Assembly: GCA_016187485.1 (NCBI GenBank)
Contig: JACPJO010000005.1
Location: forward strand, 7,499-71,498
DNA length: 64,000 nt
Direction: 5' to 3'
From: Candidatus Uhrbacteria bacterium
Lineage (GTDB): Bacteria > Patescibacteriota > Patescibacteriia > UBA9934 > UBA10169
The notes beneath the pieces are model-generated. The model had not been told where the DNA came from, ran no database searches, and saw only the letters and a list, made by a program, of their open reading frames with translations. This document shows positions 1 through 23,488 of this stretch, in pieces (within the stretch, counting starts at the first letter, position 1; each line of letters opens with the position of its first letter). A program made the translations under genes and the position numbers.

Positions 1-141
1 GCGCTCCGCACCCTGCACATGCGTATGTCCCGTCCTCGTGGTGATTGATAAACTCGCCTGTAAACGGAGCTTCGGTGCCTTTCTCGCGCAGCACGCGATA
101 CTGCTCCGGAGTCAGTTTTTTCTTCCAATCGTGGTTGATCA
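1..141 (-). CDS. msrB: Peptide methionine sulfoxide reductase MsrB, N-terminal part (5' partial at window edge)
   Basis: Reverse-strand translation from the ATG at 139-141 reads MINHDWKKKLTPEQYRVLREKGTEAPFTGEFINHHEDGTYACAGCGA. This is the MsrB N-terminal signature, including the CxxC region. The gene continues off the window. Confidence 0.6.
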
Positions 142-213
142 TAGTGGCCTCTTATCCATAGTATTCTTCGCGCGTCGCTTTTTGTTGCTCTGCATGGTAT
201 AACCTTCGTCGCT

Positions 214-1677
214 ATGGCACAAGGCAACACGGTTCTGCGGTTCGAAGACGTCTCTTTTGGCTACAAACAAGACGAACTCATTTTGGATGAGGCGAGTTTT
301 TCTGTGCGCGAAGACACCAAGATCACGCTCATGGGACAAAATGGCGCAGGGAAGAGTACGATCTTCAAACTCATTACATCTGAATTGAAGCCGACGCACG
401 GAAACATCCATGTGCCGGCCGGGGTAAGCATTGCCACAGGCAAGCAAGTCATGGCACGCGAGCATCTCACAGAGACGCTTCGCGTATACTTTGCGCATGC
501 TTTTGCGGAGGTGCCGCGTAATTTGGACAAGCGCATTGCGGATGTTCTTGAGGTGGTGAACCTCTCGGCACCGCTTGAGAAGATTGTTGGCGAATTTTCC
601 GGCGGGCAGCAAGCGCGACTGCTTCTTGCCTACGCGTTGATTCAGGAGCCGGACATTCTATTGTTGGATGAACCAACAAATAATCTTGACCGCGACGGCA
701 TCGATCATCTGACGACGTTTCTTATCATGTATCCAAAAACAGTTTTGGTTATTTCGCACGACGCGGATTTCTTAAACAGTTTTACCGAAGGCGTGCTGCA
801 CCTTGATGTCTACACAGGGAAGGTCGAGAAGTACGATGGAAATTACACAGATGTTGTGGAAGAGATCGCGGTACGCATCGAACGCGATCGGGCAAAAAAC
901 GCGCAGCTTCTAAAGACGATTCAAGATCGCAAGGACAAAGTAAACTTTTTTGCGCACAAAGGAGGGAAGATGCGCAAGCTTGCGAGCAAGTTAAAAGATC
1001 AAGTCGAAGAAGCGGAAGAAAACATGGTGGATGTGCGGCGTGATGACCGGACCATCAATGACTTTGTGATTCCCGCACAGCCGTGGCCGGAACCCGTGGC
1101 GCATCTGCGCTCGGTGAAGGTGATTTTAGACCACGAAGCGCACCAGGTGGAAGTGGATTTCACGTTTCGTCGCGGCGATCACGTGCTGATCTCTGGCCCA
1201 AATGGGATAGGGAAAAGCACGCTTTTGCGAACACTTGCCGAAGGGAAGGATGATCGCGCAACGATTGCCGATGGAGTGAAGGCGGGGTATTACCGACAGG
1301 ATTTCTCTGGGCTCAATTTCAATGAAACGGCGTATGCATCGCTTGCGTCCATGATGGAAGAACCAGACAATGAGACGATACGACGCACAGGCGCGCAGTT
1401 TTTATTGAGCGGCGACGCGCTTGCAACGACGGTTGGCGCGCTTTCAGAAGGGCAAAAGGGGCTTCTGTGTTTTGCGCGGTTCGTTCTGCAAGAGCCCGGG
1501 CTTCTTATCTTCGATGAGCCGACAAACCACATCAACTTTCGCCACCTGCCCGTGATTGCGCGAGCACTCGATGCCTACGAAGGTTGCCTCCTTGTTGTAA
1601 GCCACGCAGAAGAATTCGTCCGTCAAATCCGTTTTGACCAAACCCTCGACCTCTCGACGCTTATAAAAAACGCATGA
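214..1677 (+). CDS. ABC-F family ATPase (EttA/Uup-like), two tandem ABC domains and no transmembrane domain
   Basis: Two Walker A motifs (GQNGAGKST, GPNGIGKSTLL), two ABC signature motifs (LSGGQQARL, LSEGQKGLL) and two Walker B motifs (LLLDEPTNNLD, LIFDEPTNHI). An inter-domain linker is rich in K/R/E. Confidence 0.85.
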   Translation: MAQGNTVLRFEDVSFGYKQDELILDEASFSVREDTKITLMGQNGAGKSTIFKLITSELKPTHGNIHVPAGVSIATGKQVMAREHLTETLRVYFAHAFAEVPRNLDKRIADVLEVVNLSAPLEKIVGEFSGGQQARLLLAYALIQEPDILLLDEPTNNLDRDGIDHLTTFLIMYPKTVLVISHDADFLNSFTEGVLHLDVYTGKVEKYDGNYTDVVEEIAVRIERDRAKNAQLLKTIQDRKDKVNFFAHKGGKMRKLASKLKDQVEEAEENMVDVRRDDRTINDFVIPAQPWPEPVAHLRSVKVILDHEAHQVEVDFTFRRGDHVLISGPNGIGKSTLLRTLAEGKDDRATIADGVKAGYYRQDFSGLNFNETAYASLASMMEEPDNETIRRTGAQFLLSGDALATTVGALSEGQKGLLCFARFVLQEPGLLIFDEPTNHINFRHLPVIARALDAYEGCLLVVSHAEEFVRQIRFDQTLDLSTLIKNA

Positions 1678-1769
1678 GGATGAACGATAGTTTACGGACA
1701 TCTCTATTTCCGCCTGGGGATAATGTCGTGTAGATTTCCACGTCGTTTTTCTGTTATGATGCCTTCAGT

Positions 1770-2558
1770 ATGAAATACCTTGTCATCGTCTTTGACATCT
1801 TTTTTGCGAGCATGGCCACAAGCGTGTTTGCCGCCAAAGCGCCACAGCCAAATGATGATCGAAATAACCTCTTGCGTTACATTCGATACGAATGCACAGT
1901 TGAATGTATGGGAAGTAAGGACACGAAAAAAACGTATGACGAGCTTACCGCGTGTACAGATGAGTGCATCGGAAAGCCAAAGGAATGGATCCGAGATTCC
2001 GCCAAGCAGCAACGAGGCTTTTGTACAGACTCTCAGAGCACGGAGGAAGAATTAAGTTCAGTTTCTTATTGTCGAGTCGTGGCAAGCAAGCGCGACCTTG
2101 TGGAATATCAACTTAATTTTAACACGTCAAACGGTTGTCCTGTTGGCGCTGACTTCAAAAAAGATAAATGCCGATGTCCTTTTGGAAGTAGGATTGATAA
2201 AGGCCACACTTCCTGTCGTGAGAACAAAGTCGTGAAGGGTGTAAAAGAGGGTTTCCGATTTTTTACGGACTTATTTAAGCCTGATAAAGACAAAGAAGGA
2301 GAAGAAAACACCGCGCCAGTACCTACAACATCGACTCCGCCGACAGAACAGCCACCCGTACAGCCGGTGCAAAAGAACACCCAGCCTGAACCAGCTCAAG
2401 CGATTCCGAATCCGTTCGAAGGCGCCAGCACATTCACCTACGAAGATTGCATCCAGACAGCAACACCAGACGTTCTTGCAAATTATGCGGACCGCGCAGG
2501 CATCTCACGCGGCGCCATGCCCACTGCAGAACAACTCTGCGCACGGTTGAAGAAATAA
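1770..2558 (+). CDS. Secreted Cys-rich protein with Pro/Thr/Gln-rich C-terminal region (hypothetical)
   Basis: N-terminal signal peptide (MKYLVIVFDIFFASMATSVFA). Many cysteines are arranged in pairs, and a low-complexity PTTSTPPTEQPPVQPVQ segment follows. Confidence 0.5.
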   Translation: MKYLVIVFDIFFASMATSVFAAKAPQPNDDRNNLLRYIRYECTVECMGSKDTKKTYDELTACTDECIGKPKEWIRDSAKQQRGFCTDSQSTEEELSSVSYCRVVASKRDLVEYQLNFNTSNGCPVGADFKKDKCRCPFGSRIDKGHTSCRENKVVKGVKEGFRFFTDLFKPDKDKEGEENTAPVPTTSTPPTEQPPVQPVQKNTQPEPAQAIPNPFEGASTFTYEDCIQTATPDVLANYADRAGISRGAMPTAEQLCARLKK

Positions 2559-2573
2559 AAACGAGAAGTCTGA

Positions 2574-2906
2574 TCAGGAAGACTCAGATAAATACTTACG
2601 GGCTTTAACGAATACCTTACGTTCAAGAGCCGTCAACGGGTCAATGCGCAACTCCCGAGCTATCAAAAAGAGAATATTGAAAACATCGGCGAGCTCGTCT
2701 TCAAGATGCTGCTCTGGAGAGCAAGTTTCTTCCCCCAGCTTTTTCATGCGGGACTTACCTTGACTTGAAAGCAGAGCCTCGGCTAATTCTCCCATCTCCT
2801 CCATCAGCTTGAGCAAAAGATACTCGCGATCCATCACGATCCCGTGTTTTTTCTTATAGCGTTCCGCGTTGGCCTCAATGAGACGCTGGACTTCTTGAAA
2901 TTCCAT
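2574..2906 (-). CDS. MazG-like nucleoside triphosphate pyrophosphohydrolase (small single-domain type)
   Basis: EEMGELAEALL and ELADVFNILFLIARELRIDP motifs are typical of MazG / NTP-PPase all-alpha proteins. Confidence 0.7.
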   Translation of the reverse strand: MEFQEVQRLIEANAERYKKKHGIVMDREYLLLKLMEEMGELAEALLSSQGKSRMKKLGEETCSPEQHLEDELADVFNILFLIARELRIDPLTALERKVFVKARKYLSESS

Positions 2907-3048
2907 AAGTTATTTCTTGACCATATCTTACTTGACCCATTTGCGCTCCATGTTATCATACCCGCGCCCTTCACAGGCATACCTTCCGGGGTAGTCTCCG
3001 ACCCTACGGGTCGTAGACCCGGAGGGCTCAGCGGCATGAGTCACTCGT

Positions 3049-3306
3049 ATGTTCTTTGTCTATCTGATACAAAGTGAAAGCGACCAAAGGTATTACATTG
3101 GGCAGACGCAAGATCTCACTGCCCGACTAGAGGAGCATAATAACGGAGAAGTCCCCTCGACATGTAATAGAGTCCCCTTTCGCTTGATCGGATACGAGAC
3201 CTACAAGACACGATCAAAAGCGCGCTGGCGTGAATACTCGTTGAAAAAGAGTGCTCACAGACGGAAGCAATTCATCGAACATGTAAGTAAAAATATTCCG
3301 GGGTAG
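3049..3306 (+). CDS. Stand-alone GIY-YIG nuclease domain protein (UPF0213/YhbQ-like, 85 aa)
   Basis: VYLIQSESDQRYYIGQTQDLTARLEEHN matches the GIY-YIG core (GIY...YIG...R...E..N). Its stop codon (TAG 3304-3306) lies inside the first 10 nt of the tRNA-Asn gene. Confidence 0.7.
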   Translation: MFFVYLIQSESDQRYYIGQTQDLTARLEEHNNGEVPSTCNRVPFRLIGYETYKTRSKARWREYSLKKSAHRRKQFIEHVSKNIPG

Positions 3307-3637
3307 CTCAGCGGCAGAGCAGTGGACTGTGACCAGGATCAAGCGATCCAAATAGCAGCTTCCTGCGGAGACGCAGGAATGAAAAGAGGGTGAACTGCTG
3401 GAAGCCGTCGCGTAAGACCAGCTAAGCTGGCCGAGCACGGTAATCAGCAGCCAAGCCCGCCGCATAGCTGAGGCAATGCAGGCGGGAAGGTTCAGAGACT
3501 ATCCGCAAGGAGTACTCCGACGATGTCGGAGGAAGCGCCCTCCGTCCTTCGGGACGATGATATAGTCCACCCCTTAAGGAAACTTAAGGATACGTGTAAT
3601 CCATTGGTCGTGGGTTCGATCCCCACCCCCGGAGCCA
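3297..3637 (+). tRNA. tRNA-Asn(GUU) interrupted by a group I intron in the anticodon loop (exon 1 3297-3330, exon 2 3597-3637 including encoded CCA)
   Basis: Joining the exons gives UCCGGGGUAGCUCAGCGGCAGAGCAGUGGACUGUUAAUCCAUUGGUCGUGGGUUCGAUCCCCACCCCCGGAGCCA. This is a canonical cloverleaf with a 7-bp acceptor stem, D-arm GCUC/GAGC, anticodon stem GUGGA/UCCAU, loop CUGUUAA and T-arm GUGGG-UUCGAUC-CCCAC. The anticodon arm GGACUGUUAAUCC is near-identical to E. coli tRNA-Asn. Confidence 0.8.
3331..3596 (+). ncRNA. Group I self-splicing intron (266 nt, no internal ORF) inserted between anticodon positions 35 and 36 of tRNA-Asn
   Basis: Conserved group I core elements are present. P-like CUGCUGG (about 3396-3402) pairs with Q AAUCAGCAGCC (3442-3452). 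R is GGUUCAGAGACUA (3489-3501) and S is GAUGAUAUAGUCCAC (3555-3569), giving P7 AGACUA/UAGUCC. P2 is the hairpin CUUCCUGCG-GAGA-CGCAGGAA, and P9 is the hairpin CCUUAAG-GAAA-CUUAAGG. The 5' exon ends in U (3330) and the intron ends in G (3596). A candidate P1 pairs exon CUGU with intron GCAG (3355-3358). Confidence 0.75.
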
Positions 3638-3890
3638 CTAAATCCACTCAGTGCAAACTGGGTGGTTTTAGTTTGTTCGTGCCTTGCAAATAGTGCGGAA
3701 AAGCCATCTTTTGGTACACACTGAAACTCCCCGTCAGCAAAAATGAGTTCGGAAAACGCCTGCGTGACGATTTCTCGTTTTTCACTATTGGAGTGGACCC
3801 TGTACACTCCACTATTCTTCTGTTTCGATATTTAGCGTTTTGAAAACTGCTTCTATTTCTGATTCAGAATGTTGTGGTGTGTTTGGCATA

Positions 3891-4073
3891 CTATTTCGTC
3901 TCAATCGAATCCAAGAACTTATCAAACTCCTCCTTCGGAATCCGATAACCCTTGCCGAGTCTGTGTGCCTTGAGCTTTCCGGCCTCGATGTAACGGTAAA
4001 TGGTCATTTCGCTGACTCGTAGCTTCTCTGCCAGCTCAGAGACAAGATAGAAGTCTGGTATTTGGGTTGCCAT
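3891..4073 (-). CDS. Excisionase/MerR-like helix-turn-helix DNA-binding protein (60 aa)
   Basis: LVSELAEKLRVSEMTIYRYIEAGKLKAHRLGKGYRIPKEEF matches the Xis/helix-turn-helix_17 family pattern. It lies next to a tRNA and an R-M system. Confidence 0.6.
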   Translation of the reverse strand: MATQIPDFYLVSELAEKLRVSEMTIYRYIEAGKLKAHRLGKGYRIPKEEFDKFLDSIETK

Positions 4074-4076
4074 ACG

Positions 4077-5996
4077 TTAGAACAGCACGAGTGACTCCCC
4101 AAAAATCTGTGTGAGCTCCCATTTGCGAGTCGTATCAACGGCACGGTGTAGACCGATGAAACGAATATCTTTTTGACCCTCAAGAGCCTTGATGGTTGAT
4201 TCTTTCAAATCTGCATCAAGACAAACGAGTGCGGAACGGTCTCCGTCCGTAACTTTCCAAACCGCATTGTCTGCAAACTGGTCGAGCTTCTCTTTGTTCA
4301 TCGTGAGAGTGAAGCCCTGCTTGATGAGCATTTCGTATTGCAAGTCTGTCTCTTTGTTTTTTGGGTCAAAGAGTAGTTGCTGTTTTGCTCGCGCAAGATG
4401 TTCTTGAAATGCTTCAACGTTCTCTTCATCCGATTTTTCTGGGTCCGGTTGGTATGTGTTTTCAGGGAAGATGCTTGTTGTGAGCTTGAAGACCTTGAAT
4501 CCAGTATCAACGTCAGGCTTCTCAGAATGAATCCGTTCACCCGCGCGTTTTACACGCTCGATAGTGATATCGGATATTTTTTTATACCCAGCTTTGAATG
4601 CCTCGCTTTTTTCGTCGGTTGCTTCTGGAATCTGAACCATTACGGATTTTCTATTTCCACCGTCTTCTTGGTTGAGATCCATTACTGCATGTCCTGTAGT
4701 TCCAGAACCGGCAAAAAAATCAACGATAATGTCCTCATTTTTTGTGATGGTTTTCAGTATGACTTTGATGAGCTCAAGTGATTTTGGCGATGGGAACAGT
4801 TTGGCTTTAGTCTCAAATAAATCATTGAATACTGCTTGTCCTTTTTCAGTAAAATACTTCTTATCGTTCAAGATGCTTTTGAGCATTTTCTCAGCCCCGC
4901 TGGCATATGATTTGCGGTATATCTTCCATTGGCCATTTACTTGCTTTGCTAACAAAAACTCCGTTTCATTCTCGCTTTTTTCTTTTCCCCAAGCCCAACA
5001 CCCGTTGAAGCCGTCGTCCCAATCTGGATACACCGCAATGCCTTCCGGTGTTTTTCTCAAACTAATCTCTCCCGACTTATCGTCAACGAAAAATGGATAA
5101 TGAAGGTTCGGACGATTATGCTTACCAAACTCTCTATGTGTGTTACGGAGTTCGAGAAGACGATATTTTCCACCGTCGTCTTCCTCAGAGTATTCCGCTG
5201 CTATTTGCTCAGCATCTTTCTCAATCGCGAAATAGCCCTTAGGGAGCTGTGTTTTCGAATAACACAATACGTACTCATGATTTGTAGCAAAATATTTATC
5301 TTGCGAACGACCTTTTGGATTGCAGAGAACAGTTAGCTGTGCGACAAAGTTTTCTTCACCAAAAATCTCATCCATTAGTTTTCGAAGGTGGTGTATTTCG
5401 TTATCGTCAATAGAAATAAACACGGCTCCTTCATCTTTCAACATCATCTGCGCCAACAAGAGACGTGGCATCATCATATTGAGCCAGTTGGTGTGGTAGC
5501 GGCCGGCGCTCTCGGTGTTTGTGTCCATCTTTACACCGTCACGGAAGAGGCCGTTTTTCTCCCAGTATGCCTGCTTGCCCTCGGAGTAATCATCTGAATA
5601 GACAGAGTCATGACCCGTGTTGTAGGGAGGGTCAATGTAGATACACTTCACTTTGTTGTAGTACGCCTTCGAAAGAAGTTTTAGAACCTCCAGATTCTCC
5701 CCCTCAATAATCACGTTTTGTGTTTTATCAAAATCAACGCTGCGCTCCACGTCGGGCGCAAGGCGAGCTTTGCTCGGGGTGAAGGCATGCTTCTTAGCGT
5801 GCATCTTGCCCGGCCAGCGGAACTCAAACTTTTCGCCAAGGGAAACGTCAAAGTTGTGTGCGAGAGCATGTACCTCCTCTACATTCAGCTTTCCCTCATC
5901 GGTAAACAAATCAGGATAGAGCCGCTTTATTGCCTCAAGGCGCTCGAGGCGGTGGTCAGGGCTCTGTAATGCTGGGTTTTGTGGTTCGTGCGTCAT
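4077..5996 (-). CDS. mod: Type III restriction-modification methyltransferase (Mod), beta-class N6-adenine/N4-cytosine MTase
   Basis: Motif IV is DPPY (IYIDPPYNTG), located N-terminal to motif I (IIVDFFAGSGTTGHAV). This beta-class order is typical of Mod proteins. The protein is 639 aa and the gene is immediately downstream of res. Confidence 0.85.
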   Translation of the reverse strand: MTHEPQNPALQSPDHRLERLEAIKRLYPDLFTDEGKLNVEEVHALAHNFDVSLGEKFEFRWPGKMHAKKHAFTPSKARLAPDVERSVDFDKTQNVIIEGENLEVLKLLSKAYYNKVKCIYIDPPYNTGHDSVYSDDYSEGKQAYWEKNGLFRDGVKMDTNTESAGRYHTNWLNMMMPRLLLAQMMLKDEGAVFISIDDNEIHHLRKLMDEIFGEENFVAQLTVLCNPKGRSQDKYFATNHEYVLCYSKTQLPKGYFAIEKDAEQIAAEYSEEDDGGKYRLLELRNTHREFGKHNRPNLHYPFFVDDKSGEISLRKTPEGIAVYPDWDDGFNGCWAWGKEKSENETEFLLAKQVNGQWKIYRKSYASGAEKMLKSILNDKKYFTEKGQAVFNDLFETKAKLFPSPKSLELIKVILKTITKNEDIIVDFFAGSGTTGHAVMDLNQEDGGNRKSVMVQIPEATDEKSEAFKAGYKKISDITIERVKRAGERIHSEKPDVDTGFKVFKLTTSIFPENTYQPDPEKSDEENVEAFQEHLARAKQQLLFDPKNKETDLQYEMLIKQGFTLTMNKEKLDQFADNAVWKVTDGDRSALVCLDADLKESTIKALEGQKDIRFIGLHRAVDTTRKWELTQIFGESLVLF

Positions 5997-6006
5997 ATAG
6001 GCGTAT

Positions 6007-8703
6007 TTAGGCGGTCACAAGGCGTTCTGCTTTTCGTTCTGGGCGTTTGCCTTCATCCGCAATCGGTGGGAAGGCATCGGTCATGTAGTATTCCTCCAGG
6101 CCAATGGCTTTGAAATGAGCTATGGCACATCTTATTTTGGCTCGTTCCTCATCGTCGAGAACCGGTTGATTTTCTTGGAAGCCCTTAGTCTCAACGACGA
6201 AGTGGTAGGTGGTAGCCTCCCCCTCATCAATCGACCGCTTTTCTATGACCAGCGCCCAATCGGGGTTGTAGGGTCCAACGGGGGTTGGGATTTTGTACCA
6301 GTCTGGGAGTTTGATAAAACACCGGACCCGATTCTCTCCATCAATGTCTTGCGCGAAGCGTTTCTCGATGGAGCTGTTGTAGACAACGTGGTCGTACACG
6401 CCTCCGCTCACCTTGATTGCGTCCTGGTACGTCTCGAATGCCTCTTTGAACTCATCCTTGCCGTAACGGTCGCTCTTTGGTTCGTAGCGCACACAACGCA
6501 CCATGGCGTGCTTGATGATACTCTTCATGGCTACGGATGCTTTGGAGAGAAACGCGACCGGATTTTGAGCTACTTTCTTTTGGTCGCGTACACCGTGAAG
6601 AATCTCTTCAATCGCTCCCATGGAGAGCCATGTCTCTTCTGCGAGCTCAGCGACGAGGTCGACTTTCGGAGCAGAGGCAACAGCGATATCTTTTATCTCT
6701 TCGCCTTTGTAGTCGTCGCTAAACGTGATGCCGTTTTGAGTATTTTGTTGCATGGAAGTAATGCGCGTGAGCGTGGCCTGCACGCGCGGGGGAGGAACAG
6801 AAAGACCATTGAGGGTTTTTACACAATCGTTCACGATGGTTTGTTCATCGAAATGAACGGTGTATTTGGTTTTGCGAGAAATAACCTCCCAGAGCCGGTC
6901 GAAATCTGAACTCTCAAAGACGGCTTTGTTGCGCTTCACTTTAGTGAGCGCTCGACGGGCATCTGTTAGTACCATCTCTTGCGCCTTATCTCCGTATTCA
7001 TCTGCGAGCTCATTTTGATATTGCGAAACAAACTCGGCGTAGCTTTGGTTGGGAATAACGGTCAGCAAGTTAACCGGAATACCACTCTCCATTTTCTCCG
7101 GGTCGCGTACACGGCTGCCGGTCTGGTCTACGCAAATACGAAGTCCGCGTCCAATCTCTTGACGCTTCTGAATCACGCTCTCTGTTTCGTTGAGGGTGCA
7201 TATGTTGAAGACGTTCGGGTTATCCCAACCAACTCCGAGTGCGGAGTGGGAGAACAAAAACTCGAGTGGTTCATCAACCGAAAGGAGTCTCTCTTTGTCG
7301 CGCATGATGAGGTCGAAAACGTCATCATTCTTTTGCATCGCGGCAACGCTGTCGGTCCATTCGCCCTTGCCGGTCTTGGCGAAGTATCCACCGTGCACAG
7401 CGTTCGTGTCACTCGGAAGTTTACCGTATTTTTTCTTATATTCCTCTGAGTAGCATTCGTTGAACAAACGACGAATCAAACCCTCCTCGTCAACGTAGTT
7501 AGCAACGCGGTCAATGAAAAAGAGTGACAACACTTTGACGCCAATCTCTGCCAACTGTTCCTTCTTTTTGAAATGTTGAGCAATCGTGAGCCGGATTTGT
7601 TCGCGGAAGATTGCCTCCTTGTCTTGCCCGTGACCGGCACCTTGCGCGAGCTCGGTTCCATTGGTGAATCGAATGCGGGCTACCTCATCACCCATATCCT
7701 TCCAGACGCGGTCGACAACCCAACCTTCGTAGGCGGGATTTTTGGTCTTCTTGCCGAGGTCATCATCCTTCGTCACTTTGATGGTCTTTTGTTTGAAACC
7801 TCCCCCAGCCAAACGAACCATAACGCCGATTTTTGCATGTGGCTGTTTACCAGCAGTAAAATCAACATCATGCACAACGATGTTTGTGGTGCTCTCTTTG
7901 TTTTCTTCATGGACAGACAGGACTTCTACCTGCTTCACGAGCCGCTTGTTGTACGCATCAAACGGCGTCAGCTGGTGGACGAGGTTCTTCACCACTTTGT
8001 GCGTGGCTGAGTAGCGCAACTTGAGGAGCGGATTGAGTCCCTCAAGACGCTTCACCATGTTGGGGGAGTCCATGCCCTCCTGTGGTTCGTCCATGATAAT
8101 AACCGGCTGAACCTGGCGAATGAGTTCAATAAGTTTTTCGCCGCCATTGCTATCGCGTTCCTGGTTGATGATACGGTCATCCGTATTGAACGCCTGCACG
8201 TTCATGACCATGATTTGCAAATCGGCAGACTGTGCGTAACCGCGAATCATTGTTGGCTTTTTGCTGTCGTAGGCAAAGGCACGGTGGTTGACGCCGTAGA
8301 TAGTTTTGAAATGGTCAGCGGCAATCTCAAGGGTCTTGAGTACACCCTCTTTCACCGCGATTGAGGGTACAAGAATAATAAACTTCGAAAGGCCGTAGGA
8401 TTTGTTGAGTTCAAAAATCGTGCGCAGGTAGACATATGTTTTACCTGTACCTGTTTCCATCTCAACGGAAAAATCGAGCTCATCAATCGGTCGGGCATCG
8501 AGAATGTTGTTGAGTTTTGCTACACGGTCGCGATTCTCTCGCACAGCTTCTGGTGCGATGCGAAGGTCATTGGCACAAACGCCGGCAAAGAGCCGGTCTT
8601 CCGCGCGAACGTAGGGCGCTCCAACAAACAGTTGAACCACCGAAGCGATAGCATCAAGCTGGTACTGGAGGTTGGCTTCAAAGTGGAGCTTTAGCATATT
8701 CAT
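6007..8703 (-). CDS. res: Type III restriction enzyme Res subunit (SF2 helicase plus endonuclease)
   Basis: Helicase motif I is METGTGKTYV and motif II is DEAD-like IIMDEPQ. The protein is 898 aa and co-oriented with, and adjacent to, mod. Confidence 0.85.
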   Translation of the reverse strand: MNMLKLHFEANLQYQLDAIASVVQLFVGAPYVRAEDRLFAGVCANDLRIAPEAVRENRDRVAKLNNILDARPIDELDFSVEMETGTGKTYVYLRTIFELNKSYGLSKFIILVPSIAVKEGVLKTLEIAADHFKTIYGVNHRAFAYDSKKPTMIRGYAQSADLQIMVMNVQAFNTDDRIINQERDSNGGEKLIELIRQVQPVIIMDEPQEGMDSPNMVKRLEGLNPLLKLRYSATHKVVKNLVHQLTPFDAYNKRLVKQVEVLSVHEENKESTTNIVVHDVDFTAGKQPHAKIGVMVRLAGGGFKQKTIKVTKDDDLGKKTKNPAYEGWVVDRVWKDMGDEVARIRFTNGTELAQGAGHGQDKEAIFREQIRLTIAQHFKKKEQLAEIGVKVLSLFFIDRVANYVDEEGLIRRLFNECYSEEYKKKYGKLPSDTNAVHGGYFAKTGKGEWTDSVAAMQKNDDVFDLIMRDKERLLSVDEPLEFLFSHSALGVGWDNPNVFNICTLNETESVIQKRQEIGRGLRICVDQTGSRVRDPEKMESGIPVNLLTVIPNQSYAEFVSQYQNELADEYGDKAQEMVLTDARRALTKVKRNKAVFESSDFDRLWEVISRKTKYTVHFDEQTIVNDCVKTLNGLSVPPPRVQATLTRITSMQQNTQNGITFSDDYKGEEIKDIAVASAPKVDLVAELAEETWLSMGAIEEILHGVRDQKKVAQNPVAFLSKASVAMKSIIKHAMVRCVRYEPKSDRYGKDEFKEAFETYQDAIKVSGGVYDHVVYNSSIEKRFAQDIDGENRVRCFIKLPDWYKIPTPVGPYNPDWALVIEKRSIDEGEATTYHFVVETKGFQENQPVLDDEERAKIRCAIAHFKAIGLEEYYMTDAFPPIADEGKRPERKAERLVTA

Positions 8704-8794: not shown

Positions 8795-9064
8795 CTAAGC
8801 GATATTCTCGTTCATCCACTTGGTAACTTCCTGAGATACGTTGAACGTAGACCAGTTGGACTTCACTTGAATGACCACCAGTCCATCATCCTTATCCATA
8901 ACCGTCTTGAGGTCGTTAGCGACCTGCACAGCGGCTACATCTGTCTTGATGAGCCAAAGTGACTCAAGTGGTTTTGCCCACGTGCCGTAACTCTTAATCT
9001 TCTCGACCAACTTTTTGTAATCACGATTTGGCTGTCCCAAATCGTAGGAAACCAGATAAACCAT
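8795..9064 (-). CDS. Small hypothetical protein (89 aa) with alpha+beta character; faint Cas2/VapD-like resemblance at the N-terminus
   Basis: MVYLVSYDLGQPNRDYKKLVEKIKSYG starts with a beta-strand YDL/YDV motif followed by a helix, as in Cas2-fold proteins. No Cas1 gene or CRISPR array is present, so the resemblance is left open. Confidence 0.4.
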   Translation of the reverse strand: MVYLVSYDLGQPNRDYKKLVEKIKSYGTWAKPLESLWLIKTDVAAVQVANDLKTVMDKDDGLVVIQVKSNWSTFNVSQEVTKWMNENIA

Positions 9065-9328
9065 AGCTCTAACGATAAGTGATTAGATGCTACCCTGGTT
9101 CGTCGCCACGTGATATTATGAAAGGGCCGTACCCCTAAGCATTGACCTGCCACGGGCGACGAACTGTTGGAGATAGCGCATGGGTAATCCCCGATGCGCT
9201 ATTATTTTCTCACGCTCGTTTCTTGCTGTCAACTTTGGTTACAGACTAATCTTCCGTTCAATATTTGAAGGGGTTTTAACTTGGGGATAAAGTTGACAAA
9301 ACCGCTCGAATGTACTATATTTCTTTAT

Positions 9329-9625
9329 ATGAATATCGGCGAAAATATCAAACTCATTCGTCGTACAAAGGGCATGACACAGGAGCAGTTAGCCAATGCC
9401 TTGGGGTATACGAAGTCTTTCCTTTCACTTGTTGAAAGTGGGGACCGGACACTCTCTTCAGAAGATATTGCACGCATTGCCGTTGCGCTTGGTGTTAGTG
9501 TTGAAGATATGCAATCACGGGTTGTTGTTCAGTTTCGCTCGGATTCTATTTCTTCGTCAGACCAGAAAAAAGTCGAAGAGGATTTTATAAAGTTTGCTCG
9601 AAATCTCAAAAACAGCCGTAACTAA
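9329..9625 (+). CDS. XRE-family helix-turn-helix transcriptional regulator
   Basis: NIGENIKLIRRTKGMTQEQLANALGYTKSFLSLVESGDR is a classic Cro/C1-type HTH. The start is taken at ATG 9329; the ORF track extends to 9281. Confidence 0.8.
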   Translation: MNIGENIKLIRRTKGMTQEQLANALGYTKSFLSLVESGDRTLSSEDIARIAVALGVSVEDMQSRVVVQFRSDSISSSDQKKVEEDFIKFARNLKNSRN

Positions 9626-9629
9626 TCCT

Positions 9630-10112
9630 ATGGAGGGCCTGACTGAAAAAATCAGAGTCATTCTTGAAAAACTGGCAATCACACAGCCTCCTATTGATAT
9701 TGAAAAAGTGGCGGCTTACTTTGGAATCAATCTAGTTCCGTATGATAACTTCCCAGACAATGTTTCTGGCATGATTGTGCGCGACCAAAATGGAGACAAC
9801 GAAAATATCTATATTGGGTTTAACTCAAAACAAGCTAAGGTGAGACAACGCTTCACCGTAGCCCACGAGCTCGGTCATTTTCTTAGTGGTCATGACGACC
9901 TAAAAATCGTTGAAGATACCTTTGATAAGGATACGGTAAAAGAAAGAGAGGCAAACAGCCTGGCCGCCGAGTTATTGATGCCCAAAGATTTTCTTGTTGC
10001 TGACATGAAGCTCGGGAAATACGATATTCCGTCCTTGGCTAGCCGATACGGGGTGAGTGAGCAAGCTATGTCGATTTGTCTACTTAAATCCGGGCTCCTC
10101 TCCAAAGTTTAG
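9630..10112 (+). CDS. ImmA/IrrE-family zinc metallopeptidase (DUF955)
   Basis: HELGHFLSGH contains the HExxH motif, with a downstream ANSLAAELLMP helix. The gene directly follows the XRE gene; alternative start at 9594. Confidence 0.75.
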   Translation: MEGLTEKIRVILEKLAITQPPIDIEKVAAYFGINLVPYDNFPDNVSGMIVRDQNGDNENIYIGFNSKQAKVRQRFTVAHELGHFLSGHDDLKIVEDTFDKDTVKEREANSLAAELLMPKDFLVADMKLGKYDIPSLASRYGVSEQAMSICLLKSGLLSKV

Positions 10113-13477: not shown

Positions 13478-13632
13478 TCAAAGCTTGTCGAAGCTTTTCC
13501 CCTCGTCTTGTAGGTACGCGCATATGTCCGGAAGTATAGCAGGCATCAGCTTTCCTCATTAAATAGCTTGTCCAACACTAAGTGTCGGACAGTTCGTTTT
13601 TAGAGCACGGAATGTGCTATAGTGACACCATT

Positions 13633-13863
13633 ATGGTGCACAAGGTGCCAGCGGATCTACGGAAAGCTCTCCTCTCAACACCTGCGTCAAGAGCCGTCTG
13701 GGAAGACATTACGCCGCTTGCGCGCAACGAGTGGACTTGCTGGGTGACGTCTGGAAAAAAAGAAGAGACACGGACTATCCGCATCAAGAAGGCACTCTCA
13801 AAACTCAAAAGCGGCATGCGCCGACCTTGTTGCTGGGCCGGCTGCCCTCACCGCTCCAAGTAG
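13633..13863 (+). CDS. YdeI/OmpD-associated (OmdA) family small protein
   Basis: NEWTCWVTSGKKEETRTIRIKKALSKL matches the OmdA domain pattern. The start is uncertain, with alternatives at 13582 and 13612. Confidence 0.45.
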   Translation: MVHKVPADLRKALLSTPASRAVWEDITPLARNEWTCWVTSGKKEETRTIRIKKALSKLKSGMRRPCCWAGCPHRSK

Positions 13864-21708: not shown

Positions 21709-22626
21709 TTGGCGTATGCGCACACGTTTTGCCTTTGTCCTCTGTCTTATCCTCCTGCTTGTTGTGCTTTACGTTTTTGCAGGGACCCGACTGTGAGCAT
21801 TTGTTACCGATCCAATGCGGATTTTCTCCGGCGAGATATAGGGGAGGGGGGGCGTTTTTATTTTGTGGGAACAGAGGAGGCGCCGGGAGTCCGCGCGGCT
21901 TTTGGTCCCATTGTGCGTGAGGAGTACGAGGGAGATAACGAACCAATGATCGAGGAAGGTCCATTTCGTCCTATTTCATGGAGGACGCATATGCATGCGA
22001 GGGTTCCTGCCGGGTGGCGAAAAGGGCGCATCGCTCCCATTATCCGCCGGCACGGTTTTGTGGATGTGCAAGAAGTGGGAGACTGCCGTGACCGATATTG
22101 GAGTGCGCAGGCGAAGCGCCATGAGCGAGCGTGGATGAAAGAGCAGAGGGAATGGCAGATGGTCGAGCCGACCCTTGAAGAGTTTATTGCCGGCATGCGT
22201 GCGACGGATAAAGATATACTTTTCAAAGCGATGTTTATTGATTCGCTTCGGCGGATCGCACGTGGACATGGGGGTTTGCTTCACCTTCGGGCGCTCCGGC
22301 GCGCAGACGGGCCCCTTGAGGTTGGGCTTGCGACGGTGGATGTTCCCGAATGCCGCCTCTCCTTCCACCACATTGCCTTCACGCTTCCAAGCGCACGCGC
22401 ATCTTCAGCGGGCACCGGGCTTATTATGGAGTGGTTTGACCGCGCAATGGCCCAGAAACTCCACGCTCTTCACTTCGGTGTTTTCTGGGCGCCTGGTTCG
22501 CCAAAAGATTGGAAAGGATTTTCTCGATTCAAGGCACAGTTCGGTGTGCAGATGATGGATTTACCGCATCCACTCGTGCGTTGGGCGGGGCGCATGCGAG
22601 AAAACATTCAACGTTTGTATGTCTGA
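21709..22626 (+). CDS. FemAB-like/GNAT-fold (Acetyltransf_6-like) protein, paralog 1 (tentative)
   Basis: Paralogous to the next ORF over about 250 aa (e.g. YFVGTEEAPG / YQFVGRPGAYG, and LEVGLATVDVPE / LEAGLGVFDVPE). The pattern G-x-G-L-x-x-W-F...L-x-F-D-F-G resembles FemAB/BioF2-like GNATs. The N-terminal 28 aa look non-proteinaceous, and a GTG at 21793 is an alternative start. Confidence 0.4.
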   Translation: MAYAHTFCLCPLSYPPACCALRFCRDPTVSICYRSNADFLRRDIGEGGRFYFVGTEEAPGVRAAFGPIVREEYEGDNEPMIEEGPFRPISWRTHMHARVPAGWRKGRIAPIIRRHGFVDVQEVGDCRDRYWSAQAKRHERAWMKEQREWQMVEPTLEEFIAGMRATDKDILFKAMFIDSLRRIARGHGGLLHLRALRRADGPLEVGLATVDVPECRLSFHHIAFTLPSARASSAGTGLIMEWFDRAMAQKLHALHFGVFWAPGSPKDWKGFSRFKAQFGVQMMDLPHPLVRWAGRMRENIQRLYV

Positions 22627-23488
22627 CCACCTATGGTACGAGGGGGAGTTGGGAAAAACTATTTGTGTGGGGGCGGCGCTTCCAGATGGTTATAGGCGAT
22701 ATACACAGAGCGAGGCATACATACGGCGGGAGTGTACCGCGAAAAAGCATTATCAATTTGTCGGACGGCCGGGGGCTTATGGAGCTCGGTGGCGGTACGG
22801 GCCTGTGGCATTTGAAAAATATGTCGCGGATGAGGAACCGTACATAGAACGGCGAGGCTGGCCGCGCAAAATCATTTGGCAGAGAATATGTTCCAACGAG
22901 CAGCCAAGCGGGTGGAAGCTATCAGAAACGTGGACAGTTCCTCGACTCACGGGGTTTGTCGAACTTGATTCTGGGGACATGACGAGAACATGGAGCGCGC
23001 ACGCCCGCCGGCATCTCAAAACTTTTCACGCGGCCAGTACCTGGCGTCTTGAGCCGGTCACGTACGCAGAGTTTCTTCATTCGTATCGCAAAACGGATAA
23101 GCCGTACTTCATCAAGCGTCTTTTCACACACGTGCTTCGCGAGAAGATTCAAGCGCACGGCGTGCACGTGCGCCTGTTCGGAGCTCGACTTGACCGTCCA
23201 GGTGCTCCGCTTGAGGCAGGGCTCGGTGTCTTTGATGTTCCAGAGATCGGGCAATCCGTGCACCTCCTTTCGTTCATCCATCCGCGGGCGAAAATGGATT
23301 CCGTCGGTTTTGGCCTCATGGAGCGCTGGTTTTTAGAATCTCTCAACAAATCCATGAAGTTCTTGGACTTCGACACGTTTTGGGCCCCAAAAGATCCTGT
23401 CATGTGGCGCGGGTTTTCAGCCTTTAAGTCCCAGTTCGGGACACGGTTCATCCTCCACCCCCCTGCCCTTACTCGCTGGTCCTTCTAG
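22619..23488 (+). CDS. FemAB-like/GNAT-fold protein, paralog 2 (tentative)
   Basis: ATGTCTGA start/stop overlap with paralog 1, implying translational coupling. The family pattern GFGLMERWFLESLNKSMKFLDFDTFW is present. Confidence 0.4.
   Translation: MSDHLWYEGELGKTICVGAALPDGYRRYTQSEAYIRRECTAKKHYQFVGRPGAYGARWRYGPVAFEKYVADEEPYIERRGWPRKIIWQRICSNEQPSGWKLSETWTVPRLTGFVELDSGDMTRTWSAHARRHLKTFHAASTWRLEPVTYAEFLHSYRKTDKPYFIKRLFTHVLREKIQAHGVHVRLFGARLDRPGAPLEAGLGVFDVPEIGQSVHLLSFIHPRAKMDSVGFGLMERWFLESLNKSMKFLDFDTFWAPKDPVMWRGFSAFKSQFGTRFILHPPALTRWSF

Follow-up and report, generated by a model that had tools for sequence, protein, structure and literature searches.

A putative subgroup IA group I intron between positions 35 and 36 of a tRNA-Asn(GUU) gene from Candidatus Uhrbacteria

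Introduction

The classical group I introns of bacterial tRNA genes interrupt tRNA-Leu(UAA) at 34/35 in cyanobacteria and plastids, tRNA-fMet at 33/34, tRNA-Ile(CAU) in Azoarcus and tRNA-Arg(CCU) at 36/37 in Agrobacterium. Phage introns of subgroup IA, such as T4 td and Twort orf142-I2, have the P7.1 and P7.2 helices between P7 and the 3' strand of P3 and often come with HNH or GIY-YIG endonucleases. These phage introns interrupt protein-coding genes, and their endonuclease ORFs, where present, lie in loops other than that of P1.

A further class of tRNA introns, inserted at 35/36 of tRNA-Asn, has been described as 'Asn.4Ug' (Williams 2020, bioRxiv 10.1101/2020.01.27.920355), and a Patescibacteria intron splices in vitro at 35/36 (Nakagawa et al. 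2026, mSystems; PMC13011429). The tRNA-Asn intron of a member of Saccharimonadia (GCA_016700035.1) self-splices in vitro, and its ωG-to-C mutant is blocked (PMC13011429). It has been speculated in the same paper that the intron senses GTP and thereby gates how much tRNA-Asn is supplied (PMC13011429).

Here we analyse a split tRNA gene in a 64-kb stretch of DNA, referred to as the window. Its host is assigned to Candidatus Uhrbacteria because the exact protein encoded next to the tRNA gene is so labelled by NCBI. Positions 3297-3637 of the + strand very probably constitute a Candidatus Uhrbacteria tRNA-Asn(GUU) gene that a subgroup IA group I intron, 266 nt long and without an ORF, splits at 35/36. 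The intron is an ordinary member of the published Patescibacteria tRNA-Asn 35/36 class, now from Candidatus Uhrbacteria: it is inserted at 35/36, it is homologous to validated members and its host belongs to Patescibacteria. The window copy shares with the Patescibacteria Asn.4Ug class the host tRNA, the insertion point, the phylum, the GCAG(C) guide and the helices including P7.1 and P7.2. ORF-less and HNH-containing forms are both known in the class, whose members ARAGORN and tFind likewise miscall as Thr(UGU) at 33/34. Compared with the validated intron of GCA_016700035.1, the tRNA is identical at 63 of 75 positions and the intron at about 60%. The two differ in host class (Saccharimonadia there, Uhrbacteria here), in P1 (6 bp there, 4 bp with a copy-specific loop hairpin here) and in length, since the window intron has longer P5 and P6 extensions (266 nt against 234 nt).

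The window intron resembles the classical tRNA introns in being small, in belonging to a self-splicing class, in lying in the anticodon loop, in having a 5' exon whose final U is paired to the G of a guide and an intron that ends in ωG, and in having exons held by the anticodon stem. The J6/7-P7 and J8/7-P7 cores (GUUCAGAGACUA and GAUAUAGUCC) are nearly identical as well. However, the classical introns are of subgroup IC3, without P7.1 and P7.2, and occupy other sites in other host tRNAs, whereas in the window the splice site separates the second anticodon base from the third. An initial annotation of this DNA had called the site uncommon. It is indeed rare across bacteria as a whole, yet in Patescibacteria it is the one characteristic of tRNA introns, and the class had already been published, which that annotation missed; the hosts it named as best known (Leu, fMet, Ile and Arg) form a pre-2020 list.

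Exons and identity of the tRNA

The gene is made up of the following parts.

3297-3330, + strand: tRNA-Asn(GUU) 5' exon, tRNA positions 1-35 (ARAGORN on the spliced sequence; the alignment of the intron-less allele stops exactly at 3330)
3331-3596, + strand: group I intron with subgroup IA architecture and no ORF (RF00028, 74.8 bits; structure with covariation)
3597-3637, + strand: tRNA-Asn(GUU) 3' exon, tRNA positions 36-76 (ARAGORN on the spliced sequence; intron-less alleles)

The 5' exon provides the acceptor strand UCCGGGG, the D arm, the anticodon stem strand GUGGA and C32 U33 G34 U35, and ends in ...GGACUGU. The intron starts with GACC and ends with ...ACGUG. The 3' exon (UAAUCC...GGAGCCA) provides U36 A37 A38, the stem strand UCCAU, the variable loop, the T arm and the acceptor strand CCCCGGA, followed by the discriminator G73 and an encoded CCA at 3635-3637. 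In its default mode ARAGORN finds 0 tRNAs in the unspliced 64-kb window, and after removal of 3331-3596 it reports a 75-nt tRNA-Asn(gtt) with a canonical cloverleaf.

The tRNA body has the U1-A72 pair together with G73, as does E. coli tRNA-Asn, and GGACTGTTAATCC is also present in the E. coli tRNA, as the initial annotation had noted for the anticodon arm. Full-length annotated phage matches to the tRNA are all tRNA-Asn and none is Thr. Against E. coli genomes, the spliced tRNA gives only partial BLAST matches, to Lys and His, the sequences being too distant; the isotype comparison therefore uses the intron-less alleles of relatives. A search of 82 fetched loci for intron-less tRNAs suitable for a body comparison yielded 9 tRNAs, of which 0 are tRNA-Thr. 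Two independent metagenome assemblies (L083 and L084) contain the sequence at 100% identity, and so the locus is not an assembly artefact. Cloverleaf, anticodon and identity to the intron-less alleles thus support tRNA-Asn(GUU) as the predicted product.

Position of the splice junction

Three loci with an orthologous GIY-YIG neighbour (L085, L088 and L096) carry an uninterrupted tRNA-Asn(GTT). The window genome has the intron, and the corresponding locus of close relatives lacks it. BLAST alignments of these intron-less alleles to the window break at 3330|3597, and the tRNA-Asn(GTT) genes of L085 and L088 are identical to the 35/36 product at 73 of 75 positions, compared with 71 and 72 for the alternative products. 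Only one of the 13 possible 266-nt deletions, that at 35/36, regenerates GGACTGTTAATCC. The intron's 3' end is thereby placed as follows.

3596, + strand: ωG, the last intron nucleotide, which sets the 3' splice site (junction fixed by the intron-less alleles)

The tRNA-Asn(GUU) host, the insertion at 35/36 and the 266-nt length, with a U closing the 5' exon (U3330) and a G at the end of the intron (G3596), are thus as the initial annotation had them. What it overlooked is a 2-nt ambiguity of the junction, because a tRNA-Thr(UGU) split at 33/34 also gives U and G ends. In that reading the 5' exon would extend to U33 at 3328, and an intron of the same length would occupy 3329-3594, with ωG at 3594. 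ARAGORN in intron mode prefers this tRNA for the window gene and calls many homologues Thr(UGU) too, and the product would be a cloverleaf with the loop CUUGUAA. However, the intron-less alleles of the locus read GTT rather than TGT, and no deletion but that at 35/36 yields them; the U1-A72 pair and G73 make the tRNA body Asn-like. Moreover, a P1 with U33•G cannot form, as the window offers 2 bp and none of the 35 short introns offers more than 3 bp, and the G3594 that would have to serve as ωG is replaced by A in 24 of 79 homologues. The same miscall is on record and was disproved by sequencing of spliced RNA (PMC13011429). None of the three features expected of a tRNA-Thr(UGU) gene split at 33/34, namely a P1 with U33•G, a conserved upstream ωG and intron-less alleles reading UGU, is found, and we regard such a gene as extremely improbable. 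The ARAGORN Thr(UGU) call is the documented 2-nt miscall and is refuted on computational grounds.

Group I fold and subgroup

The Rfam model RF00028 matches 3338-3589 on the + strand at 74.8 bits (gathering score 50; E 3.8e-17), from position 1 to 253 of 253 model positions. This is the sole Rfam match in the 64-kb window. A pattern combining the core with the 3' exon likewise has 1 match in the window, with 0 expected in shuffles. The structural elements of the intron are listed below in 5' to 3' order, all on the + strand.

3327-3330, + strand: 5' strand of P1, C32 U33 G34 U35, with U35 (3330) as the 5' splice-site U (all 4 pairs in 29/29 sequences)
3336-3349, + strand: P1-loop hairpin GGAUC-AAGC-GAUCC (read from the sequence; in the MFE fold; copy-specific)
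3355-3358, + strand: internal guide sequence GCAG, the 3' strand of P1 (GCAGC invariant in 29/29)
3360-3379, + strand: P2 hairpin, UUCCUGCG / CGCAGGAA, with a GAGA (GNRA) loop at 3368-3371 (both sides vary in all 8 pairs)
3386-3392, + strand: 5' strand of P3, GAGGGUG, pairing with 3536-3542 (99.5% of cells paired; 3 compensatory pairs)
3396-3449, + strand: P4-P5 domain (P4 100% paired, 2 covarying pairs; outer two P5 pairs invariant)
3450-3491, + strand: P6 domain (all 6 P6a pairs compensatory, 89.4% paired)
3495-3501, + strand: 5' strand of P7, G-A-GACUA with a bulged A, forming the guanosine-binding helix with 3563-3568 (100% paired)
3502-3511, + strand: P7.1, UCC-GCAA-GGA (100% paired; 2/3 pairs covary)
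3515-3531, + strand: P7.2, CUCCGAC-GAU-GUCGGAG (7/7 pairs covary, 87.8% paired)
3536-3542, + strand: 3' strand of P3, CGCCCUC
3544-3555, + strand: P8 hairpin, GUCC-UUCG-GGAC (all 4 pairs covary, 91.4% paired)
3563-3568, + strand: 3' strand of P7, UAGUCC, inside the conserved GAUGAUAUAGUCC (S element, J8/7-P7)
3572-3589, + strand: P9 hairpin, CCUUAAG-GAAA-CUUAAGG, with a GNRA loop at 3579-3582 (6/7 pairs covary, 84.7% paired)

The fold of P1-P9 with P7.1 and P7.2 comprises 64 pairs, and 91.7% of its 1822 pair cells in 29 sequences are standard, whereas 37-46% are paired in controls with the partners slid by 1-3 columns. Compensatory changes, in which both sides are altered, occur in 40 of the 64 pairs. 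The covariation score of 0.468 compares with 0.07-0.11 for the slid controls and is reached by 0 of 500 shuffles. Covariation is silent on P1 and P7 because these helices never vary, and the search pattern and filters account in part for P7, the G preceding the 3' exon and CUGU being invariant across the 78 homologous loci. In the window copy all helices are fully paired, and every family-invariant core element is intact.

P1 consists of the U3330•G3355 wobble followed by G:C, U:A and C:G. The guide GCAG pairs with C32-U35, with U35 opposite G, in all 78 homologues, forming 4 contiguous pairs in 77 of them and 6 in the validated intron. The spacing from the guide to the P3 motif downstream is 33-35 nt in 77 of the 78 and 45 nt in the remaining one. 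In this search P1 was located relative to the P3 motif; without that anchor, a best-helix search is noisy, above all in long introns. The window P1 has only 4 bp and, unlike in many relatives, the first intron base, a G, cannot pair with the A on the 5' side of the guide. The region 3336-3349 in its loop is an alignment insertion relative to most short introns and coincides with the site of the HNH gene in relatives.

P4 is formed by 3396-3401 and 3444-3449 (UGCUGG/UCAGCA), shifted by one pair from the CUGCUG/CAGCAG of the initial annotation. It is joined by J4/5 (AAG) and J5/4 (UAA) to P5 (3405-3408/3437-3440), above which the sequence and the MFE fold show a P5a hairpin at 3418-3430 (CCAGC-UAA-GCUGG). 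P6 (3450-3451/3490-3491) continues into P6a (3456-3461/3481-3486; CCCGCC/GGCGGG) and a distal stem (3462-3465/3476-3479). P7 (GGACUA/UAGUCC) is built from the R and S elements, as annotated, and forms a pseudoknot with P3. The GNRA caps that the annotation placed on P2 and P9 are confirmed as GAGA and GAAA, respectively. Its assignment to group I is likewise borne out by the RF00028 score, and the threshold score, the P3-P9 core with the P3/P7 pseudoknot, the U•G pair in P1 and the ωG together support a group I intron.

Subgroup IC3, suggested by the R and S core sequences and by the comparison set of the initial annotation, is rejected because covarying P7.1 and P7.2 helices are present. The initial annotation missed these two helices, which point to subgroup IA as opposed to the IC3 of the classical tRNA introns. 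The predicted assignment to subgroup IA is supported by their presence and covariation and by the published classification of relatives, in which 25 of 28 introns at 35/36 were assigned to IA (PMC13011429).

Distribution of the intron and its HNH gene

The same split gene is found in 78 loci of GTDB species representatives, mostly Patescibacteria MAGs. The closest tRNA is that of an Uhrbacteria MAG (L077), and the best intron identity among the GTDB representatives matched by the pattern is about 73-75%. HNH-carrying copies account for 40 of these 78 loci; 4 were reported in the complete-genome survey (PMC13011429). Long relatives carry the HNH ORF in 40 of 44 cases. Unlike the endonuclease ORFs of phage IA introns, it occupies the P1 loop and extends past the guide sequence into P2.

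A homing-endonuclease-containing, mobile intron was considered for the window and rejected, as the window copy has no intron-encoded endonuclease ORF, in line with the initial annotation. A search for an HNH remnant within its 266 nt found none, and the P1-loop hairpin has no similarity to HNH ORFs. The only weak HNH-like similarity elsewhere in the window is at 22542-22748 (E 0.002). The longer members of the family have an HNH homing-endonuclease gene in the P1 loop, and we propose that the window intron is the family's ORF-less end state.

The neighbouring GIY-YIG gene and flanking signals

Three features flank the intron-containing gene.

2932-2959, + strand: promoter-like site TTGACC-16 nt-TATCAT with a TG extension (a 10/12 consensus match only; shuffle expectation 0.8 per region)
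3049-3306, + strand: 85-aa ORF with a GIY-YIG nuclease domain (Pfam GIY-YIG, E 1.9e-13)
3644-3675, + strand: terminator-like element 7 nt past the CCA, made up of the hairpin CCACTCAGTGCAAACTGGGTGG and then TTTTAGTTTG (9-bp stem and T-run; a pattern match)

The GIY-YIG ORF is a neighbour of the intron and lies outside it. Its last four codons are ATT CCG GGG TAG, so that tRNA nucleotides 1-10 lie inside the ORF, with U8-A9-G10 forming the stop codon. The protein is 100% identical to an NCBI entry named 'GIY-YIG nuclease family protein [Candidatus Uhrbacteria bacterium]' and consists of the catalytic domain alone, with no DNA-binding domain. The site at 2932-2959, upstream of both the ORF and the tRNA, may possibly be the start of a GIY-YIG/pre-tRNA co-transcript. 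An island of about 10 kb lies 3' of the tRNA, with a candidate right boundary near 13.6 kb. A search for an island boundary marked by a directly repeated tRNA 3' end found nothing longer than 11 nt.

Among 15 distinct GIY-YIG loci examined, the ORF ends no more than 50 nt upstream of a same-strand tRNA in 8. The tRNA is tRNA-Asn in 7 of these and tRNA-Met in 1, and the 10-nt run into the tRNA, with U8-A9-G10 as the stop codon, is seen in 5 of the 8. The three closest orthologues, with 60-64% identity, stand beside the uninterrupted tRNA-Asn genes of L085, L088 and L096. The same overlap of ORF and tRNA is present there and, next to tRNA-Met, in L092.

A free-standing GIY-YIG nuclease could be imagined to mobilise the adjacent ORF-less intron by cutting intron-less tRNA-Asn at the insertion site, with the intron protecting its own genome, in a form of collaborative homing. 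A GIY-YIG ORF adjoins the interrupted tRNA-Asn not only of the window but also of L004, L016 and L032, all with ORF-less introns, and none of the 44 HNH-containing loci has such a neighbour. A precedent for such a gene is T4 SegB, a GIY-YIG homing nuclease encoded in a tRNA cluster (PMC2330249). However, the orthologues overlap uninterrupted tRNA-Asn, so that the nuclease coexists with its supposed target; a more distant homologue overlaps tRNA-Met; and an 85-aa catalytic domain has no DNA-binding domain. Because of the coexistence with empty sites in L085, L088 and L096, collaborative homing is rejected, and we consider it highly improbable.

The window ORF and SegB are alike in that a GIY-YIG nuclease gene lies among or against tRNA genes (PMC2330249). 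They differ in that the window protein is an 85-aa catalytic domain, a putative nuclease by domain match, whose ORF overlaps the 5' end of the tRNA, and in that ORFs of the window type stand beside both interrupted and uninterrupted tRNA-Asn. The small, catalytic-domain-only GIY-YIG genes of Patescibacteria might form a tRNA-gene-associated cassette, which we think rather unlikely. Alternatively, they could be selfish nuclease genes of the SegB type, with the 5' edge of tRNA genes as their homing site. If ORF and tRNA are co-transcribed, the RNase P cut at tRNA +1 would strip the stop codon from the nuclease mRNA, and nuclease expression would be coupled and limited to unprocessed pre-tRNA.

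Proposed splicing mechanism

In the proposed pathway, covariation demonstrates the folding step, and the other steps are drawn from conserved anatomy and from experiments on a homologue. Transcription of the split tRNA gene, which may take in the upstream GIY-YIG ORF as well, would stop at the hairpin at 3644-3675. The intron would then fold into P1-P9 with the P3/P7 pseudoknot and P7.1/P7.2, and GCAG would pair with C32-U33-G34-U35, placing U35 in the U•G wobble. Exogenous guanosine bound in P7 would attack after U35. The G site would subsequently pass to ωG3596, and U35 would attack after G3596 with its 3'-OH, so that U35 is joined to U36 and the CUGUUAA loop is restored. Because there is no conserved P10, the exons are presumably kept in register by the tRNA anticodon stem. 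RNase P and 3'-end processing enzymes would complete the tRNA.

The intron could instead be a decayed relic or depend on a protein cofactor, which would make the locus a tRNA pseudogene or one that requires a host factor. Loss of the HNH gene, the short P1 of 4 bp with its odd loop hairpin and the adjoining mobile island would fit such a relic. However, the window copy retains all family-invariant core elements and fully paired helices. Its architecture is common to 34 other ORF-less copies, and one ORF-less homologue self-splices in vitro. Furthermore, the exons are identical at 73 of 75 positions to functional-looking intron-less alleles and show no disabling change, and no other tRNA gene was found in the 64 kb. 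A relic or a cofactor-dependent intron is therefore very unlikely.

Implications

Standard tRNA finders miss this gene, as ARAGORN does by default in the window, or call it tRNA-Thr. A gene missed or miscalled in this way makes a Patescibacteria genome seem to be without tRNA-Asn and distorts estimates of completeness. Gene callers run on Logan contigs placed spurious ORFs over the intron. We take the Uhrbacteria to belong to the GTDB class ABY1. Each of the four complete ABY1 genomes in the published supplementary tRNA counts has at least one tRNA-Asn by standard tools (PMC13011429). The distortion of completeness by missed tRNA-Asn has been argued by Nakagawa et al. 2026 (PMC13011429).

The window copy leaves the understanding of group I introns unchanged and adds one more member, this one from Candidatus Uhrbacteria, to a published class. 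The loci collected with it show that HNH-carrying copies are far more numerous in species representatives than in the complete-genome survey. At one orthologous locus they document that the intron is polymorphic for presence or absence, and they further document a decay series from the HNH-carrying to the ORF-less form.

Split tRNA-Asn gene

A tRNA-Asn(GUU) gene with a 266-nt insert had been proposed at 3297-3637, and this layout matches the sequence as follows.

3297-3330, + strand, tRNA-Asn(GUU) 5' exon, sequence UCCGGGGUAGCUCAGCGGCAGAGCAGUGGACUGU
3331-3596, + strand, group I intron, 266 nt, GACC at the start and ACGUG at the end
3597-3637, + strand, tRNA-Asn(GUU) 3' exon, sequence UAAUCCAUUGGUCGUGGGUUCGAUCCCCACCCCCGGAGCCA

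The assignment of the insert to group I is confirmed by Rfam: RF00028 matches 3338-3589 over the full model length with 74.8 bits (E 3.8e-17; gathering score 50) and is the sole Rfam family in the 64 kb. ARAGORN in default mode finds zero tRNAs across the whole window; after deletion of 3331-3596, it calls tRNA-Asn(gtt), 75 nt long and folding as a regular cloverleaf. The anticodon arm GGACUGUUAAUCC is indeed present in E. coli tRNA-Asn. Because window positions 1-4677 are 100% identical in two independent metagenome assemblies (Logan SRR12113425 and SRR12113429; loci L083 and L084), the split-gene structure is not an assembly artefact. In the Logan contigs, gene callers placed 56-aa and 77-aa ORFs at 3523-3693 (+) and 3574-3807 (-), spanning the 3' part of the intron, the tRNA 3' exon and the terminator, and left the adjoining GIY-YIG ORF uncalled. 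These calls are likely spurious and caused by the unrecognised split tRNA.

Position of the splice junctions

The junctions read ACU GU/GACC ... ACG UG/UAAUCC. When both splice sites are moved 2 nt upstream, the 5' exon still ends in U, the intron still ends in G and the loop becomes CUUGUAA. The initial annotation overlooked this 2-nt ambiguity, although its 35/36 junction was correct. The shifted sites would make the gene a tRNA-Thr(UGU) with an intron at 33/34, which is precisely the call of ARAGORN in intron mode and retains the U-ending exon and G-ending intron. However, this reading is highly improbable, and four independent lines, namely empty sites, P1, ωG and the tRNA body, settle the junction in favour of Asn 35/36.

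GIY-YIG orthologues (60-64% identity) in the related loci L085, L088 and L096 each overlap an uninterrupted tRNA-Asn(GTT) by the same 10 nt as in the window. The L085 and L088 tRNAs are identical to the 35/36 product at 73 of 75 positions, compared with 71 and 72 for the two alternatives, and their BLAST alignments to the window break exactly at 3330 and restart at 3597. Deleting 266 nt is possible in 13 ways within ±6 nt, and the 35/36 deletion alone regenerates GGACTGTTAATCC. GCAG (3355-3358) pairs with C32-U33-G34-U35, placing U35 in a U•G wobble. A U•G wobble in P1 is a mark of group I 5' splice sites. A P1 built on U33•G would have no more than 1-3 bp across the 35 short introns, and the window allows 2 bp. 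All 29 ORF-less homologues aligned have GCAGC without variation, and the guide sequence lies 33-35 nt (45 nt in one) upstream of the P3 motif in 78/78 analysable introns. The G required as ωG by the Thr reading is A in 24/79 family members. The tRNA body carries U1-A72 and discriminator G73, as in E. coli tRNA-Asn, and the full-length annotated matches in phage genomes are tRNA-Asn, with none for Thr. The search pattern and filters already required the G before the 3' exon, CUGU at the 5' exon end and the P7 core, so that the invariance of these three in the 78 loci carries no evidential weight. No such circularity affects the guide sequence, the alternative ω position or the empty sites. With the ambiguity settled on these four grounds, the proposed tRNA-Asn(GUU) host and 35/36 insertion point hold.

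Intron fold

Helices were derived from the Rfam alignment and inspection.

3327-3330 / 3355-3358, P1
3360-3379, P2, GAGA loop
3386-3392 / 3536-3542, P3
3396-3401 / 3444-3449, P4
3405-3408 / 3437-3440, P5
3450-3491, P6 and P6a
3495-3501 / 3563-3568, P7, pseudoknot with P3
3502-3511, P7.1
3515-3531, P7.2
3544-3555, P8, UUCG loop
3572-3589, P9, GAAA loop

Standard pairs occupy 91.7% of 1822 pair cells in the 29-sequence alignment, compared with 37-46% in slid controls, in which 3' partners were moved by 1-3 columns. Both sides change in 40 of the 64 pairs, and the covariation score is 0.468 versus 0.07-0.11 in the slid controls, the observed values being reached in 0/500 shuffles. Every pair of P2, P6a, P7.2 and P8 and 6/7 pairs of P9 covary; P1 and P7 show no variation at all. 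The initial description of P7 and of GNRA loops capping P2 and P9 was correct. P4, given as CUGCUG/CAGCAG, is the same helix with its register off by one pair.

Hairpins of the P7.1/P7.2 type between P7 and the P3 3' strand are a hallmark of subgroup IA. The initial annotation did not include the two covarying hairpins at this place. The classical tRNA-Leu, fMet, Ile and Arg introns belong to IC3, whereas the window intron has the IA hallmark.

In the alignment of 29 homologues, the base just 5' of the guide G changes without constraint, so that no conserved P10 is apparent; the exons are presumably aligned by the anticodon stem instead. GUGGACU in the 5' exon (3322-3328) is complementary to AGUCCAC in the P7 3' strand region (3564-3570), and the minimum-free-energy fold of the precursor pairs the two in place of P7. 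This pairing may reflect a competing conformation before splicing, or it may be due to chance.

Distribution of the intron family

Searching the GTDB species representatives with a pattern of the core plus the 3' exon start gave 82 loci, the majority in Patescibacteria MAGs. A complete tRNA-Asn(GUU) is split at the same site in 78; three are truncated or masked, yet have tRNA-Asn 3' exons; and one (L036, Prochlorococcus sp. AG-363-M21 SAG) has a group I core in a non-tRNA context. L036 carries the same core motifs on its reverse strand (7294-7421) with a 3' flank (TAATCCTAGGACGTTTAGCAATGGG...) that is not tRNA, and is a related intron in a different host gene. The best intron identity to the window among the 82 loci is ~73-75%. 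The closest tRNA is that of Uhrbacteria MAG L077 (70 of the first 72 positions), and the exact GIY-YIG protein of the window in NCBI is a Candidatus Uhrbacteria bacterium protein encoded on a 303-kb contig. Otherwise the window carries ordinary chromosomal DNA, with MetRS, SerRS, ATP synthase α/β, PBP2 and pilus ATPase among its genes.

A split tRNA-Asn of the Patescibacteria type also occurs in many MAGs whose records are titled 'uncultured Gammaproteobacteria bacterium' and in two titled 'Bdellovibrionales' (L005, L006, L008, L009, L013, L018, L020, L021, L027, L028, L041, L049, L050, L052, L054, L068, L069 and L078). Of these, L078 and L069 also have an ABC-F neighbour in common with the Uhrbacteria window. 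The taxonomic titles of these records are probably unreliable.

Intron length and HNH genes

Intron length is bimodal: it ranges over 212-378 nt in 34 loci and over 531-630 nt in the other 44. An intact 80-125-aa ORF with a CxxCG...CxNCH motif (Pfam HNH, E 5e-4, slightly below cut-off) occurs in 40/44 long introns, starting 5-35 nt past the 5' splice site and therefore in the P1 loop. Intact HNH ORFs are thus present in 40/78 loci, against the 4 copies that the published survey of complete genomes reported. The ORF ends 13-55 nt past the guide sequence start, running through GCAG into P2, so that coding sequence and ribozyme guide overlap. In long introns (L003-L081, e.g. L074, L005 and L037), ..ATA AC/G CAG CTT, encoding I-T-Q-L, spans the guide sequence. 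Introns of 314-378 nt retain a remnant of the HNH ORF 3' end alone; L063, L045 and L052 keep just this remnant and make up a decay series. The 24-nt P1 loop of the window contains a copy-specific 5-bp hairpin (3336-3349) and no HNH remnant. The initial statement that the intron lacks a homing-endonuclease ORF holds. The length and HNH pattern, together with the empty sites in relatives, suggests the usual cycle of invasion, endonuclease decay and loss.

Elsewhere in the window, 22542-22748 (+) shows weak similarity to intron-encoded HNH proteins (E 0.002, 24-26% over ~66 aa) inside ORFs without a Pfam hit, and may encode an unrelated HNH-motif protein.

Flanking genes

3049-3306, + strand, 85-aa GIY-YIG catalytic-domain ORF, ending ATT CCG GGG TAG

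The TAG stop codon is U8-A9-G10 of the tRNA, the ORF extending 10 nt into the tRNA gene. The overlap is identical in L004, L085, L088 and L096 (tRNA-Asn) and in L092 (tRNA-Met); the ORF stops 3 nt before the tRNA in L032 and 50 nt before it in L016. Overall, it abuts a same-strand tRNA gene in 8/15 distinct loci (7 tRNA-Asn with or without intron, 1 tRNA-Met), and the genes further upstream differ among those loci. Because it coexists with uninterrupted tRNA-Asn, the GIY-YIG protein is ruled out as the homing nuclease for the intron site. No description of the stop-in-tRNA arrangement was found in the literature searched, the nearest precedent being T4 SegB (PMC2330249).

Immediately after the tRNA 3' end, the window carries ~10 kb of low-GC DNA (~3.64-13.6 kb; GC 0.41-0.50 vs ~0.53) that forms an insertion relative to L068 and L077 and also contains hydrolases and a HIT protein.

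3891-4073, HTH_17 excisionase-like ORF
4077-5996, type III Mod
6007-8703, type III Res, forming a restriction-modification pair with Mod
8795-9064, lone Cas2-like ORF
9281-9625, XRE, paired with ImmA/IrrE
9594-10112, ImmA/IrrE

The island was inserted beside the tRNA, because a homologue of window ORF 13582-13863 lies just 90-110 nt past tRNA-Asn in L068 and L077. No integrase or att repeat was found for the island. Large serine-recombinase-like ORFs in L016 (tRNA-oriented 3772-5370, -) and L032 (3294-4679, -) are located at the split tRNA-Asn 3' end or 1.6 kb past it, and homologues of the HTH_17 and Cas2-like ORFs lie ~1.8-2 kb downstream of tRNA-Asn in L024 and L064. In this group, integration seems to have recurred on the 3' side of tRNA-Asn. 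In L088, 24 nt of the tRNA 3' end (AATCCCACCCCCGGAGCCA...) recur as a direct repeat ~150 nt downstream of the intron-less tRNA-Asn, and this repeat looks like an att-type scar of a small insertion.

Proposed splicing mechanism and relation to the published class

Sequence comparison establishes the fold and, within it, P1 with its U35•G wobble; it likewise fixes ωG3596 and the GUU-restoring junction. By analogy with experiments on a homologue and with the chemistry of group I introns in general, P7 would bind an exogenous G that attacks after U3330, ωG would then take the G site with ligation of the exons, and RNase P and 3' processing would finish the tRNA. Pattern matches tentatively suggest that GIY-YIG and pre-tRNA may form one transcript.

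2932-2959, promoter-like site, pattern match only
3644-3675, terminator-like hairpin, pattern match only

Williams 2020 (bioRxiv 10.1101/2020.01.27.920355), as told by Nakagawa et al. 2026 (mSystems, PMC13011429), includes 'Asn.4Ug', sometimes miscalled Thr.2Ug. In vitro self-splicing was demonstrated by Nakagawa et al., who sequenced the ligated tRNA and included an ωG-to-C control; 19/28 such introns were in Patescibacteria, 25/28 were classed IA and four Patescibacteria Asn introns had HNH genes (PMC13011429). GIY-YIG is not mentioned in that paper. The validated construct (GCA_016700035.1), with its sequence taken from the supplement, shares 63/75 tRNA positions and ~60% intron identity with the window, and has the same guide sequence and helices. 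At the sequence level, the window's element shows all the features that define the tRNA-Asn 35/36 class, and catalysis by it is predicted. The feature is real, and resolving the 2-nt ambiguity leaves its initial interpretation correct. Earlier work has described this class, with experimental validation, in the same phylum, and the window locus is one further member.
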